A stretch of 21,068 nt of DNA from a virus (taxonomy: Duplodnaviria > Heunggongvirae > Uroviricota > Caudoviricetes), in the IMG/VR virus record IMGVR_UViG_2778260996_000004. One strand, 5' to 3'. The notes below the pieces were generated by a model that searched no databases, was not told the origin of the DNA, and saw nothing but the letters and a program-made list of their open reading frames with translations. Below are positions 122 to 5,110 of this stretch, one piece after another; the first letter of the stretch is position 1; the number at the start of each line of letters is the position of its first letter. Position numbers and translations under genes: made by a program.

Positions 122-739
122 ATGGATAAAAATGTAGAGCATGTATTAGTTGATGCAATTGAAAATAAGCAATCTTTAACAGTCGTTTACTTAGGAGGGA
201 GCCAGCCCGGAACATTAAGGAATATTTCTCCGATTAGTATAAATGGGGATAAGTTGCGGGCAAGATGCCATAGTTCTGGAGCAGTAAAGGTTTTCAATCT
301 TGGGAAAATACAGTTACCCAGTGACTCCTGCGCGGTATCTATGCATTATGGAGATTTAGAAGTTAAAGCTTATGAGACGATGCAGAGCGTAAATGACAAC
401 TTTCATGCCCTTTATCCTGAAGGACGATGGGGTGTTGATTTTAATGAGCATCGCTTTGCTTTATTTGATTTTTTTAAAAACGGGAAACGAAAAAAAACGG
501 CATTTATGGCAATTGAGTTCAGGGAAAGAGATGAAGAGAAAATAATAACAGGTGTAACAATTGATATTGGTATATCTGGAACAGTGATTTCTGAGAAATC
601 CCGAATCCCAAAAAGACGACCATGGGTAGTGGTTGGTCCCGAACACGGAGAATACAGTACTTATTCAACTTTGGACAAGGCTGCTACAGCGTTTTTTGAG
701 AGGCTTTCGTTGATAGCATCCGGCCTGGAAGATAATTGA
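122..739 (+). CDS. hypothetical protein, 205 aa, AT-rich orphan/cargo gene; possible N-terminal SH3-like (WYL-like) beta-barrel; function unknown
   Basis: Intact ORF with GGGAGG (111-116) 5 nt before ATG 122; followed by an intrinsic terminator; composition visibly more AT-rich than the rest of the window (my rough estimate about 40% GC against more than 50% elsewhere). No family recognised. Confidence 0.75.
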   Translation: MDKNVEHVLVDAIENKQSLTVVYLGGSQPGTLRNISPISINGDKLRARCHSSGAVKVFNLGKIQLPSDSCAVSMHYGDLEVKAYETMQSVNDNFHALYPEGRWGVDFNEHRFALFDFFKNGKRKKTAFMAIEFRERDEEKIITGVTIDIGISGTVISEKSRIPKRRPWVVVGPEHGEYSTYSTLDKAATAFFERLSLIASGLEDN

Positions 740-893: not shown

Positions 894-1015
894 GTACCTG
901 TAAACTTGGTGCAGTACAGTAAACACGCTGGTGGTCGTGAATACTGACTTTTTATCTTGCTGGCTTTTTAGACAAGAGTTATTGGTATGTCATGTTAACC
1001 AGAAGGGAAAAAGAC

Positions 1016-1219
1016 ATGCTAAAACAGCAAGATATGACAGAAACCGCCGCCGCAGTCCTTCATTTCTTACCTGCTGACAAGTGGGTAACGCCACGCATGA
1101 TGACGAGAACTACCGGAGTAAGCGAAGCCCGGTGCCAGTTAATACTGACTCAGTTAGTTCTGGCGGGGCTGGCGAAGGATAACGGCGGGTACGGGAATAA
1201 ATTCAGACGCTGCCAGTAA
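1016..1219 (+). CDS. small winged-helix-like DNA-binding protein (about 67 aa; ORF opens at 992)
   Basis: ORF 992-1219; internal ATG 1016 is preceded by AGAAGGGA. Segment TRTTGVSEARCQLILTQLVLAGLAK has the look of an HTH recognition helix. Short ORF, no family assignment. Confidence 0.45.
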   Translation: MLKQQDMTETAAAVLHFLPADKWVTPRMMTRTTGVSEARCQLILTQLVLAGLAKDNGGYGNKFRRCQ

Positions 1220-1369: not shown

Positions 1370-2422
1370 ATGAAAAATACTGTAAAAATAAACAGTGTTG
1401 ATTTAATCAACGCTGATTGCCTGCATTTTATTCAGTCCCTGCCTGATGATTCCATTGACCTGATTGTTACCGATCCGCCGTACTTCAAGGTGAAACCCAA
1501 CGGTTGGGACAATCAGTGGAAAGGGGACGAAGATTACCTTAAGTGGCTGGACCACTGTCTGGCCCAGTTCTGGCGGGTGTTAAAACCTGCCGGAAGCCTT
1601 TATCTGTTCTGTGGGCATCGCCTGGCATCTGATATTGAGATCATGATGCGTGAACGTTTCAACGTGCTTAACCATATCATCTGGGCGAAGCCGTCCGGAC
1701 GTTGGAATGGGTGTAATAAAGAAAGTCTGCGCGCATATTTTCCTGCCACAGAGCGCGTTCTGTTTGCTGAACATTACCAGGGGCCATATCGCGGCAAAAG
1801 TGACGGCTATGCAGCAAAAGAAAGGGAACTCAAACAGCACATAATGGCACCGCTGATATCGTATTTCAGGGATGCTCGTGCCGAACTGGGTATAACGGCA
1901 AAACAAATTGCCGAAGCCACAGGTAAGAAAAATATGGTTTCCCACTGGTTTGGTGCCAGTCAGTGGCAGTTGCCGAATGAGGCTGACTATCGGAAGTTAC
2001 AGGCACTGTTTTCCCGTATAGCGGCAGAGAAGTTTCAGGAACAACAACTGGAACAACCACACCACCAGCTGGTGGCATCTTATGATTCACTGAATCGCAA
2101 ATATTCTGAATTGCTGGATGAGTTTAAATCTCTCCGGCGCTATTTCTCCGTATCAGTCTCCGTGCCTTATACCGATGTCTGGACGCATAAACCCGTTCAG
2201 TTCTACCCGGGTAAACATCCGTGCGAGAAACCGGCGGATATGCTCCGGCAAATAATCAATGCCAGTAGTCGCCCTGGTGATCTGGTTGCTGATTTCTTTA
2301 TGGGATCCGGTTCCACAATAAAAGCAGCAATGGCGCTGGGGCGTCGGGCGTTAGGTGTTGAACTTGAGTCAGAGCGGTTTAATCAGACGGTGAAAGAGGT
2401 AAGTGAACTGGTGGGGAAATAA
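1370..2422 (+). CDS. DNA methyltransferase, beta-class amino-MTase (N6-adenine or N4-cytosine), phage orphan type
   Basis: DPPY motif IV near the N-terminus (LIVTDPPYF) and FxGxG motif I near the C-terminus (DFFMGSGST), the beta-class motif order; 350 aa. Confidence 0.9.
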   Translation: MKNTVKINSVDLINADCLHFIQSLPDDSIDLIVTDPPYFKVKPNGWDNQWKGDEDYLKWLDHCLAQFWRVLKPAGSLYLFCGHRLASDIEIMMRERFNVLNHIIWAKPSGRWNGCNKESLRAYFPATERVLFAEHYQGPYRGKSDGYAAKERELKQHIMAPLISYFRDARAELGITAKQIAEATGKKNMVSHWFGASQWQLPNEADYRKLQALFSRIAAEKFQEQQLEQPHHQLVASYDSLNRKYSELLDEFKSLRRYFSVSVSVPYTDVWTHKPVQFYPGKHPCEKPADMLRQIINASSRPGDLVADFFMGSGSTIKAAMALGRRALGVELESERFNQTVKEVSELVGK

Positions 2423-2429
2423 TTCTGGT

Positions 2430-2455
2430 GGCCACGTTGCGTGGCCTTTTTATTT
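2430..2455 (+). terminator. intrinsic terminator-like hairpin after the methyltransferase
   Basis: GGCCACG-ttg-CGTGGCC (7-bp perfect stem) followed by TTTTTATTT, 8 nt after the MTase stop. Confidence 0.5.
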
Positions 2456-2498
2456 CCAACACAGCACCCGCAAATATCGCGAGGTGAGAGATGACGAA

Positions 2499-2834
2499 AT
2501 GCCTCATAACCCAAATACCTGGCCGGACTGGCTGGAGTTGTTTCAGAGCTGGTGGCGTGGAGACACGCCGCTGGGTGCAGTGATTATGTCGATCGTTATG
2601 GCTGGTTTGCGCATCGCCTATTTTGGCGGTGGTGGTGGCTGGAAGCGAAAAACGCTCGAGATTTTGCTCTGTGGCGCTCTGACGCTGACCTTTGCATCCG
2701 CTCTTGAGTATGTCGGATGGCCTAAATCACTTTCTGTTGCCATTGGTGGCGGTGTGGGGCTGATCGGTGTCGATGCTATTCGTGGGGCTGCAATGCGAGT
2801 AATCGGTAACAAGTTTGGTGGCTCTAAGGAGTAA
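2499..2834 (+). CDS. putative holin, class I topology (three hydrophobic segments), 111 aa
   Basis: Sits directly upstream of the endolysin gene; three hydrophobic/Gly-rich segments and a charged C-terminal tail; GAGGTG upstream of ATG 2499. The ORF track extends it to GTG 2403, but that extension contains the terminator hairpin. Not lambda-S-like in sequence. Confidence 0.6.
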   Translation: MPHNPNTWPDWLELFQSWWRGDTPLGAVIMSIVMAGLRIAYFGGGGGWKRKTLEILLCGALTLTFASALEYVGWPKSLSVAIGGGVGLIGVDAIRGAAMRVIGNKFGGSKE

Positions 2835-2837
2835 TTT

Positions 2838-3314
2838 ATGCAGGTACTAAATTCCCAGCGTAAAGCTTTCCTCGATATGTTGGCGTGGTCAGAAGGAACG
2901 GATAACGGGCGACAGCCAACCCGCAATCACGGCTACGACGTTATTGTAGGTGGTGAGTTATTCACGGATTACTCCGATCATCCTCGCAAACTTGTCACGC
3001 TAAACCCCAAACTCAAATCAACAGCCGCCGGACGTTACCAGCTTCTTTCACGCTGGTGGGATGCTTACCGTAAACAGCTTGGCCTGAAAGATTTTTCTCC
3101 AGAAAGCCAGGACGCTGTAGCTCTGCAGCAGATTAAAGAGCGTGGCGCTTTACCGATGATTGATCGCGGTGATATTCGTCAGGCTATCGACCGTTGCAGC
3201 AATATCTGGGCTTCACTACCGGGCGCTGGTTATGGTCAGTTCGAGCATAAAGTTGACAGCCTGATTGCAAAATTCAAAGAAGCAGGCGGAACGGTCAGAG
3301 AGATTGAGGTATGA
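2838..3314 (+). CDS. R: endolysin, lambda R-type lytic transglycosylase
   Basis: 158 aa, near-identical to lambda R as I recall it ([22 protein letters not shown]...GTVREI.V); AAGGAG RBS at 2826-2831. Confidence 0.95.
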
Positions 3315-3778
3315 GCAGAGTAACCGCGATTATCTCCGCTCTGGTTATTTGTATCATCGCCTGCCTGTCATGGGCTGTTAATCATTACCGTGATAACGCC
3401 ATCGCCTACAAAGAACAGCGTGATAAAAAAGTCAGTGAGCTGAAGCAGGCGACCGCCACCATCGCTGACATGCAGCAGCGTCAGCGTGATGTTGCTGCGA
3501 TCGATGCAAAATACACGAAGGAGTTAGCCGATGCGAAAACTGAAAATGAAACTCTGCGCGCTGATGTTGCCGCTGGTCGTAAGCGCCTGCGGGTCAATGC
3601 CAGTTGCTCCGCAGCCGTGCGTGAAGCCACCGGACCCACCAGCATGGATAATGCAACCAGCCCCCGACTGGCAGACACCGCTGAACGGGATTATTTCACC
3701 CTCAGAGAACGGTTGATGACGATGCAGAAGCAACTGGAAGGGGCGCAGGAATATATCCGCACCCAGCGCATTAAGTAG
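3311..3778 (+). CDS. Rz: i-spanin Rz
   Basis: 155 aa, strongly lambda-Rz-like ([16 protein letters not shown]...); start overlaps the R stop (GTATGA). Confidence 0.9.
3531..3716 (+). CDS. Rz1: o-spanin Rz1 (lipoprotein), embedded in Rz in the +1 frame
   Basis: 61 aa; signal peptide with lipobox-like LVVSAC, proline-rich mature part ([30 protein letters not shown]) matching lambda Rz1; AAGGAG RBS at 3517-3522. Confidence 0.85.
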
Positions 3779-4162
3779 ATGGAGAAAAAACACGAATCTG
3801 TGGTTTTTACTGAGCGCGGTGTACACGGTGGAACATATGGCGGGAAGTTTGTTGCTTATGATTATGCAGCATGGCTAAACCCCGGATTTAAATATGCAGC
3901 CTATAAAGTCCTGGATGACTACTTCACCGGAGAACTTCAGCATCGCAACAGCTTAAGTGCGCAGCTCAATATGAAGTGTCATGAGTTTGATCAGAAAAAA
4001 GATATGGCGAGCTTCTGTGGACAAGGGCTGGCGGCATGGCGCTATACGAAGCCAGTGTTGGTCGCTGAGATTAACTCCCTGGCTAACCAGCTGCAGATAA
4101 CGATCCCCGGGCTGTCCGGTATTTGCCGGTATGAAATTACCGGAAGGCGCGGTCGTTACTGA
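3779..4162 (+). CDS. hypothetical protein, 127 aa, possible KilA-N/APSES-type DNA-binding domain
   Basis: ATG 3779 immediately follows the Rz stop (TAGATG). Motif GTYGGKFVAYDYAAWLNPGFKYAAYKVL resembles the KilA-N pattern from memory; no SD evident. Confidence 0.45.
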   Translation: MEKKHESVVFTERGVHGGTYGGKFVAYDYAAWLNPGFKYAAYKVLDDYFTGELQHRNSLSAQLNMKCHEFDQKKDMASFCGQGLAAWRYTKPVLVAEINSLANQLQITIPGLSGICRYEITGRRGRY

Positions 4163-4615: not shown

Positions 4616-5110
4616 ATGGATCAAGAGTTAAAAAATCTGACGCTGAATATCAGTCAACTGGCGGCACTGTCAGGTGTACATCGCCAGACTGCTGCGGCAA
4701 GGCTGCAAAATCTACCCGTTGCAGGGGGGCATGAAAGCAACCTCAAGCTTTATCGGGTGGTTGATATTGTGTCGGCATTTCTGGCATTACCACCGCCGGT
4801 TGCAGAAGGCGAAATGGACGCGCATGAGCGCAAAGCCTGGTATCAGTCTGAACGTGAGCGTCTTAAGTTCGAACAGGAAACGGCACAACTCATTCCGGCC
4901 AGTGATGTCAGACGGGAGTTTGCCATCTGGGCAAAAGCGGTCGTGCAGGTACTGGAGACATTACCGGATATTCTGGAACGTGACTGCGGTCTGCAGCCTG
5001 CCGCTGTGAGCCGTGTTCAGTCCATTATTGATGATCTGCGCGATCAGATAGCCCTGCGGGTGACCGAAGCAGGTGCGGATGATGAGGAGGAATTACAGCA
5101 GGAGGAGTAA
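4616..5110 (+). CDS. terminase small subunit
   Basis: 164 aa; position immediately upstream of and overlapping the large terminase (TAATG); N-terminal HTH-like segment (LTLNISQLAALSGVHRQTAAARL); acidic C-terminus. Confidence 0.7.
   Translation: MDQELKNLTLNISQLAALSGVHRQTAAARLQNLPVAGGHESNLKLYRVVDIVSAFLALPPPVAEGEMDAHERKAWYQSERERLKFEQETAQLIPASDVRREFAIWAKAVVQVLETLPDILERDCGLQPAAVSRVQSIIDDLRDQIALRVTEAGADDEEELQQEE

Follow-up and report, generated by a model that had tools for sequence, protein, structure and literature searches.

The small reading frame that lies between a methyltransferase gene and a lambda-type endolysin gene in a Caudoviricetes genome raises the question of whether this phage uses a holin taken from outside the lambda S family, and of where the gene begins. 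The locus is part of IMG/VR record IMGVR_UViG_2778260996_000004, and the whole stretch of 21,068 nt that was analysed is referred to here as the window. The initial annotation regarded the holin as not lambda-S-like, and the lysis cassette as a foreign holin joined to a lambda-type transglycosylase and spanins. Sequence comparisons give strong reason for a different reading: positions 2499–2834 very probably hold the holin gene of a phage or prophage of lambdoid (mEp460-like) type, namely the SfV-type allele within the lambda S (class I) family, which starts at ATG 2499 and resides in a recombinant cassette. Features of the region are listed in Table 1.

Table 1. Genes and sequence elements in and around the lysis cassette, in window coordinates
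Feature	Position	Strand	Remarks
DNA N6/N4 methyltransferase	1370..2422	+	PF01555 E=1.3e-42; immediately upstream; same module as SfV orf48
Upstream in-frame extension	2403..2498	+	32 codons from GTG 2403; judged non-coding leader
Intrinsic-terminator-like hairpin and T-run	2430..2455 (stem 2430-2446)	+	8 nt past the methyltransferase stop codon
Possible SD-occluding stem-loop (CACCCGC / GCG-A-GGUG)	2465..2486	+	positional analogue of the lambda sdi hairpin; seen in MFE and centroid folds
Shine-Dalgarno-like GAGGTGA	2481..2487	+	conserved in the subfamily; GG(A/G)GGTG(A) in alignments
Out-of-frame ATG ORF, 30 codons	2491..2583	+	MTKCLITQIPGRTGWSCFRAGGVETRRWVQ*; located where the dual start of relatives has its first Met; probably not a gene
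Holin gene S	2499..2834	+	111 aa plus stop; predicted single-start allele of SfV type, lambda S / class I holin family
Endolysin R, 158 aa	2838..3314	+	PHROG 90; lambda-R-type soluble transglycosylase; N-terminus free of hydrophobic or SAR segments
Inner-membrane spanin Rz, 155 aa	3311..3778	+	PF03245 E=7e-50
Outer-membrane lipoprotein spanin Rz1, 61 aa	3531..3716	+	PF06085 E=1.4e-18; embedded in Rz, in another frame

Family models group the 111-aa protein with lambda S. The TIGR01594 model (holin_lambda; cut-off 55.05 bits) gives 125.3 bits (E=1.1e-36) over residues 1–108 and profile positions 2–105 of 107, and lambda S itself scores 127.3 with the same tools. PF05106 (Phage_holin_3_1; cut-off 23.8 bits) is matched over profile positions 2–99 of 99 with 95.6 bits (E=2.6e-27), compared with 105.3 bits for lambda S, and PHROG 126 yields 135.7 bits (E=1.2e-39), compared with 139. 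When a profile of the subfamily is aligned with lambda S by hhalign, the two correspond end to end over 106 columns (probability 97.2%, E=3e-11). In pairwise comparison, BLASTP finds lambda S at E=2e-6, with 25% identity over 79 aa, and global identity is 21.6%.

The closest named homologue is SfV S (NP_599081.1), which has the same 111-aa length and the same ATG and is 99.1% identical (110/111); a single residue differs, in the C-terminal tail, where SfV has GSSKE and the present holin GGSKE. The same S allele also occurs in SfII, SfIV, mEp460_4F5 and an E. coli prophage (WP_001120501.1), and the SfII record labels the protein ‘class I holin’. The holin is already annotated and known, and is an ordinary phage holin.

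An origin in a family unrelated to lambda S, with subsequent joining to lambda-type R, Rz and Rz1, is extremely improbable. It might be suspected from the low global identity, from megablast similarity to lambda, which begins only at 2856, and from a tblastn search at E≤1e-5 among phage records, which does not reach lambda. However, three independent curated models give the holin scores near lambda S's own, the profile alignment runs through the whole of lambda S at 97% probability, the Met-Lys-Met (MKM) start is kept in relatives, and both proteins share their length, the three hydrophobic segments, a Gly motif in the loop and a basic tail. Alignment against holin families, which had been proposed as a check, places the protein in the lambda S family, and at family level the description as not lambda-S-like has to be given up. 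Judged by these alignments, the holin is a divergent allele within the lambda S family and not a separate holin class. It should be pointed out that missing nucleotide similarity, or missing obvious amino-acid similarity, to lambda S need not mean a different holin family.

Lambda S, which specifies the S105 holin and the S107 antiholin, is the prototype of class I. It has in common with the present protein a length of about 105–111 aa, three hydrophobic segments, a basic C-terminal tail and a loop with Gly residues that joins segments 1 and 2 (NGG in lambda S, GGGGG here). Each of the two genes is followed directly by that of an R-type endolysin and by Rz/Rz1; in the window S ends at 2834 and is followed by R (2838), Rz (3311) and Rz1 (3531). 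The two differ in that only 22–25% of residues are identical, and the N-terminal periplasmic segment is longer in the present holin, where a short additional helix is predicted (residues 8–20). In addition, S and R overlap by 17 nt in lambda, whereas a 3-nt gap separates them here. Other members of the subfamily, termed ‘phage holin, lambda family’, come from Salmonella, Klebsiella, Pantoea, Erwinia, Izhakiella and Serratia prophages; they have a dual start and are 58–93% identical to the holin along the whole protein. Many of these are paired with GH19 endolysins, as in Salmonella and Klebsiella loci, and with DUF2514 spanin-like genes, and not with lambda R and Rz. The pinholin or S21 family (about 70 aa, two TMDs, a SAR endolysin as partner) was also considered and was ruled out by the 111-aa length, the three hydrophobic segments and an R protein without a SAR domain.

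The hydrophobic segments, three in number, the Gly run and the charged tail that had been noted at the outset are all present. In a Kyte-Doolittle plot the maxima are centred close to residues 32, 61 and 86, parallel to the lambda S profile, and FGGGGGW occupies residues 42–48. The C-terminal tail, residues 95–111 (RGAAMRVIGNKFGGSKE), carries four basic residues (R95, R100, K105, K110) and one acidic residue (E111), and aligns to KRFAAKKAGVEDGRNQ of lambda S. Charges read from the sequence are a net −2 in the N-terminal segment, KRK in loop 1 and +4/−1 (net +3) in the C-tail. This distribution agrees with the positive-inside rule, and an N-out, C-in topology is thus consistent with it. An AF2 model built on a 67-sequence alignment has helices at residues 8–20, 24–42, 48–72 and 76–105; given its low confidence (mean pLDDT 59, pTM 0.30), the secondary structure alone was used. 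Lambda S105 is a three-TMD class I holin with its N-terminus out and its C-terminus in (PMC10865782). By analogy, the present holin would have three transmembrane helices (about residues 24–42, 53–71 and 77–95) in the same N-out, C-in arrangement.

The second point at issue is the start codon. As first described, the open frame begins at GTG 2403 within the 3′ end of the methyltransferase gene and spans the hairpin downstream of it; it overlaps that gene by 20 nt in another frame and would encode 143 aa. ATG 2499 is in frame and yields the 111-aa form, and the matches to Pfam, NCBIfam and PHROG profiles all begin at residues 1–3 of this form; nothing in the same searches aligned to the 32-codon extension. 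Of 17 other subfamily loci, 11 have a stop that closes the frame 2–6 codons ahead of the start; the Shigella sister allele (95–97% identical), with TAA two codons upstream, is one of them, and relatives have unrelated leaders. Both SfV and E. coli RefSeq genomes carry the gene as a 336-nt annotation, and the NCBI/PGAP product WP_001120501.1 is 111 aa, as is SfV S.

Substitution patterns over 2403–2498 give no coding signal, with the five closest E. coli and Shigella copies identical. Because the leader is invariant in these five copies, its coding status is not readable from substitutions, and stop-codon positions in the more distant loci were used in their place. It is very unlikely that the 143-aa form is translated, either by itself or together with the 111-aa form and with a regulatory role for the longer product. 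The frame is open from 2403, AAGAGG is found at 2394–2399, and the long form has been chosen in one RAST-annotated phage record and in some metagenome gene calls, and only there. Nevertheless, a spacing of 3 nt between AAGAGG and the GTG is poor for a Shine-Dalgarno (SD) sequence, and the extension overlaps the methylase 3′ end, crosses a terminator hairpin and has no profile match. The stops and unrelated leaders of homologous loci, as well as the choice of 111 aa by the SfV and PGAP annotators, also argue against it. Sequence comparison thus gives good support to ATG 2499 as the start, in preference to GTG 2403, and the initial choice of this codon stands. The appropriate annotation is a lambda-family class I holin with its start at ATG 2499; neither a 143-aa ORF nor a foreign holin family should be assigned, and beyond correct annotation the matter has little importance.

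GTG 2484 and GTG 2403 are the only in-frame start codons upstream of ATG 2499. GTG 2484 was rejected as an antiholin start: it sits inside the SD sequence and has no separate SD, and the added residues, Arg-Asp-Asp-Glu, would be net negative, which is opposite to the logic of lambda S107. Minus-strand ORFs at 2618–2926, 2379–2507 and 2383–2514 overlap the gene and were treated as antisense artefacts; the only one long enough to test had no PHROG match.

The hairpin between the methyltransferase and S genes has the sequence GGCCACG-TTG-CGTGGCC at 2430–2446, a stem of 7 bp with 6 G-C pairs, and is followed by TTTTTATTT to 2455. The 7-bp stem is seen in the centroid fold, and the SfV annotation lists the same element as a putative rho-independent terminator. 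A comparable hairpin and T-run is found 46–161 nt upstream of S in half of the other subfamily loci examined (7/14). As a class, terminator-like matches show no enrichment in this region (5, compared with 4.4 expected from shuffles), and it is position, stem quality and annotation that make the 2430–2446 hairpin credible. A second terminator-like match, at 2519–2535 inside the holin gene, was dismissed as chance.

The GAGGTG said to precede ATG 2499 is indeed present, at 2481–2486, but its spacing is unfavourable. It ends 12 nt upstream of the ATG (14 nt from the GAGG core), which is long for a ribosome-binding site, and the same core is 6 nt upstream of the out-of-frame ATG 2491. The efficiency of initiation at ATG 2499 is therefore uncertain. 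The SD motif, GGAGGTGA, is conserved in dual-start subfamily members (Salmonella, Klebsiella etc.), and its distance to ATG 2499 equals the distance between the SD and the second Met of these relatives.

ATG 2499 is preceded by the codons GAC GAA (Asp-Glu), and an in-frame Met1-Lys2-Met3 is missing. ATG-AAR/CGT-ATG, which specifies Met-Lys-Met or Met-Arg-Met, is found in 15 of 17 other subfamily loci and in lambda; the dual-start motif is a regulatory hallmark of lambda S and is not demanded by the family models. Alleles of relatives that have the same N-terminus plus MK exist (MKMPHNPNTW...). In the DNA alignment one such allele has GAGAGATCATGAAAATGCCT where the present allele has GAGAGAT-GACG-AAATGCCT, and the MKM start in one locus (L014) reads GAGAGATCATGAAAATG. 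Since the present allele has no in-frame Met-Lys-Met, it cannot produce a lambda-style, N-terminally extended (S107-type) antiholin. That the SfI/II/IV/V holins have no dual start has already been stated, and the lysis timing of SfV-type phages without a dual-start antiholin was flagged as open in the same work (PMC3851460).

Translational control might replace the antiholin in the single-start allele, with ATG 2491, at an optimal spacing from the SD, as a decoy start that would draw ribosomes away from ATG 2499, and with an sdi-like hairpin that occludes the SD; together these would set holin dosage and lysis time. This is unlikely, although several observations are in keeping with it. Only 6 nt separate ATG 2491 from the GAGG core, compared with 14 nt for ATG 2499, and this first ATG falls at the Met1 position in the alignment; the 2465–2486 hairpin sequesters the SD in both MFE and centroid folds; and the leader, invariant in five copies, is found in 399 of 5426 complete E. 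coli genomes. Invariance may merely reflect recent spread, however, and a decoy is dispensable, since the other allele with a single start (Shigella L016/L017) lacks any ATG upstream. Statistically, the hairpin signal is weak as well. All 16 leaders folded, that of lambda included, have the SD as the 3′ arm of a hairpin in the MFE structure, but composition-matched shuffles equal this SD pairing in 12–80% of trials, and RNAalifold found no consensus structure in a MAFFT alignment of the leaders. The 30-aa ORF from ATG 2491 has no family match in PHROG. Two database proteins (P0014 and P0048) open with its peptide and then run on in the holin frame; these are read as frameshift variants or sequencing errors. 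Similarly doubtful is the wider suggestion that the predominant E. coli/Shigella allele may time lysis purely by translation initiation, whereby only a fraction of ribosomes would reach the true start at 2499.

Reading the gene as an SfV-type lambda S allele suggests a mode of action like that of lambda S105. The gene would be part of the late operon, where Q-modified RNA polymerase would read through the terminator hairpin, and translation would begin at ATG 2499. The 111-aa product would cross the inner membrane as three transmembrane helices, in the N-out, C-in arrangement, and might accumulate and then trigger into large holes. These would let out the soluble R transglycosylase, and Rz/Rz1 would afterwards disrupt the outer membrane. 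Release of a soluble endolysin through holes is consistent with the R protein, which lacks a hydrophobic or SAR segment at its N-terminus and shares 94% identity with lambda R. We infer hole formation, topology and the N-terminus of the holin by homology.

With respect to mosaicism, the initial view is partly upheld: the cassette is mosaic, yet its holin is not from a foreign family. Identity to the lambda proteins is 21.6% for S, 94.3% for R, 75.5% for Rz and 73.8% for Rz1, the last with a lipobox-like VSAC when read from the translation. SfV provides the complementary picture. R is 91.8% identical to SfV R, whereas Rz is only 19% identical to SfV Rz; the downstream Rz/Rz1 of SfV are unrelated (16–19% identity), and the window has lambda-like spanins. 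At the nucleotide level, megablast aligns SfV at 95% over 2300–3251, which covers only the last 123 nt of the methyltransferase gene; the methyltransferase 3′ end, terminator, leader and R 5′ part all match at this level. Within R, the nucleotide sequence resembles that of SfV in the 5′ part and that of lambda from about 3209 onwards. By this comparison the cassette is a recombinant of common modules, SfV-like in the methylase, terminator, S and the 5′ part of R, and lambda-like in the 3′ part of R and in Rz/Rz1. Mosaicism in the alignments thus holds as a shuffling of alleles. The case illustrates that recombination in lambdoid lysis cassettes takes place at the boundaries of genes or of parts of genes: compared with lambda, one junction coincides with the S/R boundary, and compared with SfV, another falls within the 3′ part of R. 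In PhiR55_1, the closest whole-genome relative, a 71-aa S and a 177-aa lysozyme occupy the same position.

The 111-aa protein read from ATG 2499 (MPHNPNTWPDWLELFQSWWRGDTPLGAVIMSIVMAGLRIAYFGGGGGWKRKTLEILLCGALTLTFASALEYVGWPKSLSVAIGGGVGLIGVDAIRGAAMRVIGNKFGGSKE) belongs, by its profile matches, to the lambda S family, though as a divergent member. It matches PF05106 'Phage holin family (Lysis protein S)' (E=2.6e-27, covering positions 2-99 of the 99 in the profile), the NCBIfam equivalog model TIGR01594 'phage holin, lambda family' (125.3 bits, cut-off 55) and PHROG 126 'holin/anti-holin' (E=1.2e-39). Lambda S (from NC_001416), run against the same Pfam, NCBIfam and PHROG libraries as a comparison, scores nearly the same (PF05106 105.3, TIGR01594 127.3 and PHROG 126 139 bits). 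BLASTP finds 25% identity between the two proteins over 79 residues only, yet with E=2e-6, and the alignment of a 67-member subfamily profile to lambda S runs from one end to the other (106 columns, probability 97.2%, E=3e-11). In this alignment the Gly run (YFGGGGGWKRKT) lies opposite the lambda RYNGGAFTKT loop, and the basic tail opposite the lambda KRFAAKKAG tail. The three shared models and the end-to-end alignment contradict the initial annotation, which called the holin foreign and not lambda-S-like; at the family level this is wrong.

The gene is already known, as a well-annotated SfV-type lambda-family class I holin. Shigella phage SfV matches window 2300-3251 at 95% (megablast), a stretch running from the methylase 3′ end through the terminator and S to include most of R. 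At the equivalent positions the SfV record carries annotations for S (336 nt) and for a 'putative rho-independent terminator', and its S protein is identical to the window holin at 110/111 residues. By tblastn the subtype is found in only 28 phage records, which include SfV, SfII (annotated 'class I holin'), SfIV, mEp460_4F5 and several E. coli phages. RefSeq WP_001120501.1 'phage holin, lambda family' is the same 111-aa protein, annotated in prophages of E. coli EC12 and O157:H7. Of the 5426 complete E. coli genomes, 399 contain the 66-nt leader and start region.

Features of the holin region and of the genes around it
Feature	Position	Strand	Description	Identity to lambda	Identity to SfV
Conserved phage ORF, function unknown, upstream of methyltransferase	122-739	+	PHROG 8498, full-length, E=3e-126		
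Conserved phage ORF, function unknown, upstream of methyltransferase	992-1219	+	PHROG 331		
DNA methyltransferase	1370-2422	+	350 aa, PF01555		
Long ORF	GTG 2403 to stop 2832-2834	+	143 aa, six-frame ORF list		
Out-of-frame ATG and 30-codon ORF	2491-2583	+	overlaps holin start, at relatives' dual-start Met1 position		
S (holin)	2499-2834	+	111 aa	21.6%	99.1%
R	2838-3314			94.3%	91.8%
Rz	3311-3778			75.5%	19%
Rz1	3531-3716		embedded in Rz	73.8%	16%
ORF directly after Rz	3779-4162	+	127 aa, ORF11CD3 domain, weak KilA-N match, PHROG 10441 (antirepressor or Rha-like C-terminal region)		
Small terminase gene	4616-5110				

The ORF, hairpin, ATG, hydrophobic segments, Gly run and charged tail had been described accurately. 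GTG 2403 lies 20 nt within the 3′ end of the methyltransferase gene, in another frame. The sequence GGCCACG-TTG-CGTGGCC at 2430-2446, located 8 nt past the methylase stop and followed by TTTTTATTT, is a hairpin in both the minimum-energy and centroid folds (2420-2520 folded). The 111-aa protein has three hydropathy peaks (Kyte-Doolittle) with centres near residues 32, 61 and 86; the Gly run is between the first two, and the C-terminal 17 residues include 4 basic and 1 acidic. GAGGTG is present at 2481-2486, but its spacing needs correcting, as ATG 2499 is 12 nt downstream (14 nt from the GAGG core).

Initiation is very probably at ATG 2499, as first proposed. The family profiles all begin within the first three residues of the 111-aa form, the start used by the curated SfV and PGAP annotation, and none covers the 32-codon upstream extension. 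The 143-aa form appears in some metagenome gene calls and in a single RAST record, and AAGAGG sits 3 nt ahead of GTG 2403; however, this form requires translation across the terminator hairpin. In 17 other subfamily loci (from Salmonella, Klebsiella, Shigella, Izhakiella, Serratia, Rosenbergiella, Pantoea, Raoultella and Phytobacter) and in lambda, the upstream sequence is unrelated to the window leader, and the frame is stopped 2-6 codons upstream of the start in lambda and in 11 of the 17. The Shigella flexneri sister allele (L016/L017), with 95-97% protein identity to the window holin, has a TAA two codons ahead of the equivalent ATG and is without other in-frame starts. Substitution patterns in the leader give no information because it is identical in the five closest copies.

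Of the products of the lambda dual start, the longer, with its extra positive charge, is the antiholin. The motif of this dual start (Blasi and Young, 1996, via PMC3851460), ATG-AAA/AAG/CGT-ATG (M-K-M or M-R-M), begins 15/17 other subfamily loci, as it does lambda S. Most protein clusters begin MKM..., and some alleles begin MKMPHNPNTWPDWLELFQS, which is the window N-terminus with Met-Lys added. Set against the window (GAGGTGAGAGAT-GACG-AAATGCCT), the DNA of one of these alleles (L014, GAGGTGAGAGATCATGAAAATGCCT) shows a loss of the first in-frame Met via a few small changes within a 10-nt stretch. The changes left Asp-Glu codons ahead of ATG 2499, and the out-of-frame ATG 2491 also arose from them. 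ATG 2499 thus corresponds to lambda Met3, the S105 start, and the allele is unable to make an S107-type antiholin. The loss is already known: the SfIV genome paper (PMC3851460) reports the holins of SfI, SfII, SfIV and SfV to be without the dual start, and gives lysis timing in these phages as unexplained. The single-start leader is much the commoner one in complete E. coli, with 399 genomes versus 30 for one dual-start leader tested. In L016/L017 (at 2480-2503) the dual start is missing as well, apparently through an independent event (GAGAGATAA CTA CAA ATG), and the N-terminal segment is shorter by three residues (WPD). The SD-to-start stretch is a hot spot of small indels.

ATG 2491 is 6 nt from the GAGG core, an ideal SD spacing, and might compete with ATG 2499 for initiation. 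Its ORF has no family match, and a function as a decoy start seems quite improbable because the Shigella single-start allele has no such upstream ATG. Two database proteins (P0014 and P0048) start with the ATG 2491 peptide (MTKCLITQIP...) and then pass into the holin frame, presumably from indels or sequencing errors.

In a candidate hairpin at 2465-2486 (+), CACCCGC...GCG-A-GGUG, the SD would be occluded much as in the lambda sdi element. The SD is the 3′ arm of a small minimum-energy hairpin in 16/16 leaders folded (these include L006, L010, L014-L032 and lambda, L001 1361-1377), with differing inner stems. The same pairing appears in 12-80% of composition-matched shuffles, a weak statistical support, and RNAalifold on a MAFFT alignment gave no consensus structure.

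The holin gene would be part of a late operon, in which the terminator at 2430-2455 would be passed by Q-modified polymerase. A hairpin and T-run are found 46-161 nt upstream of S in 7/14 other subfamily loci examined. The Q antiterminator gene is ~2-3 kb upstream in SfV and EC12; none is present within the window, and in this genome Q would lie beyond the window's left end. The holin would insert N-out, C-in: its charges (N-segment net -2, KRK in loop 1, positive C-tail) agree with the S105 topology described in PMC10865782. AF2 helices are at 8-20, 24-42, 48-72 and 76-105, with low confidence (pLDDT 59). The N-terminus of R has no hydrophobic segment, and R therefore needs a large-hole holin, not a pinholin. 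The holin would serve R in this way, and Rz and Rz1 (PF03245, PF06085) would complete the cassette. In Pfam-A (E<=0.1) and NCBIfam there is no match for window R or lambda R (L001 1694-2170); window R matches PHROG 90 (endolysin) at 2.5e-64, and its RefSeq name is 'glycoside hydrolase family 24'.

The proposal of a mosaic cassette stands. S, R, Rz and Rz1 differ in the partner they resemble, and the mosaicism, judged from these identities, is a shuffling of alleles rather than of families. Lambda nucleotide similarity begins at 2856, 18 nt into R (megablast). Nucleotide identity of R to SfV is 85-100% in blocks to ~3208 and then 64-70%, whereas that to lambda is 75% in the first two blocks and 94-96% in the last three. 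The whole lysis cassette is a swappable module. PhiR55_1 and relatives, the closest phages over the whole window (96%), have in common with it the methylase on one side and the genes for terminase, head and tail on the other, but their lysis cassette in between (L035 2702-4333 in PhiR55_1, opposite window 2499-3778) is wholly different: it consists of S (71 aa), a YdfR-family gene and a lysozyme of 177 aa. Salmonella and Klebsiella loci have this holin subfamily adjoining GH19 endolysins. Module exchange of this kind is the norm among lambdoid phages.

The ORF after Rz fills the slot of lambda bor (opposite strand) and of O157 prophage iss. There are no tRNA genes anywhere in the window. Window 4591 aligns to the first position of the linear mEp460 and Ayreon phage records, and a cos site or genome end is probably located just upstream of the small terminase gene; the window would then cover the junction of the two ends, as prophage or circular DNA does.
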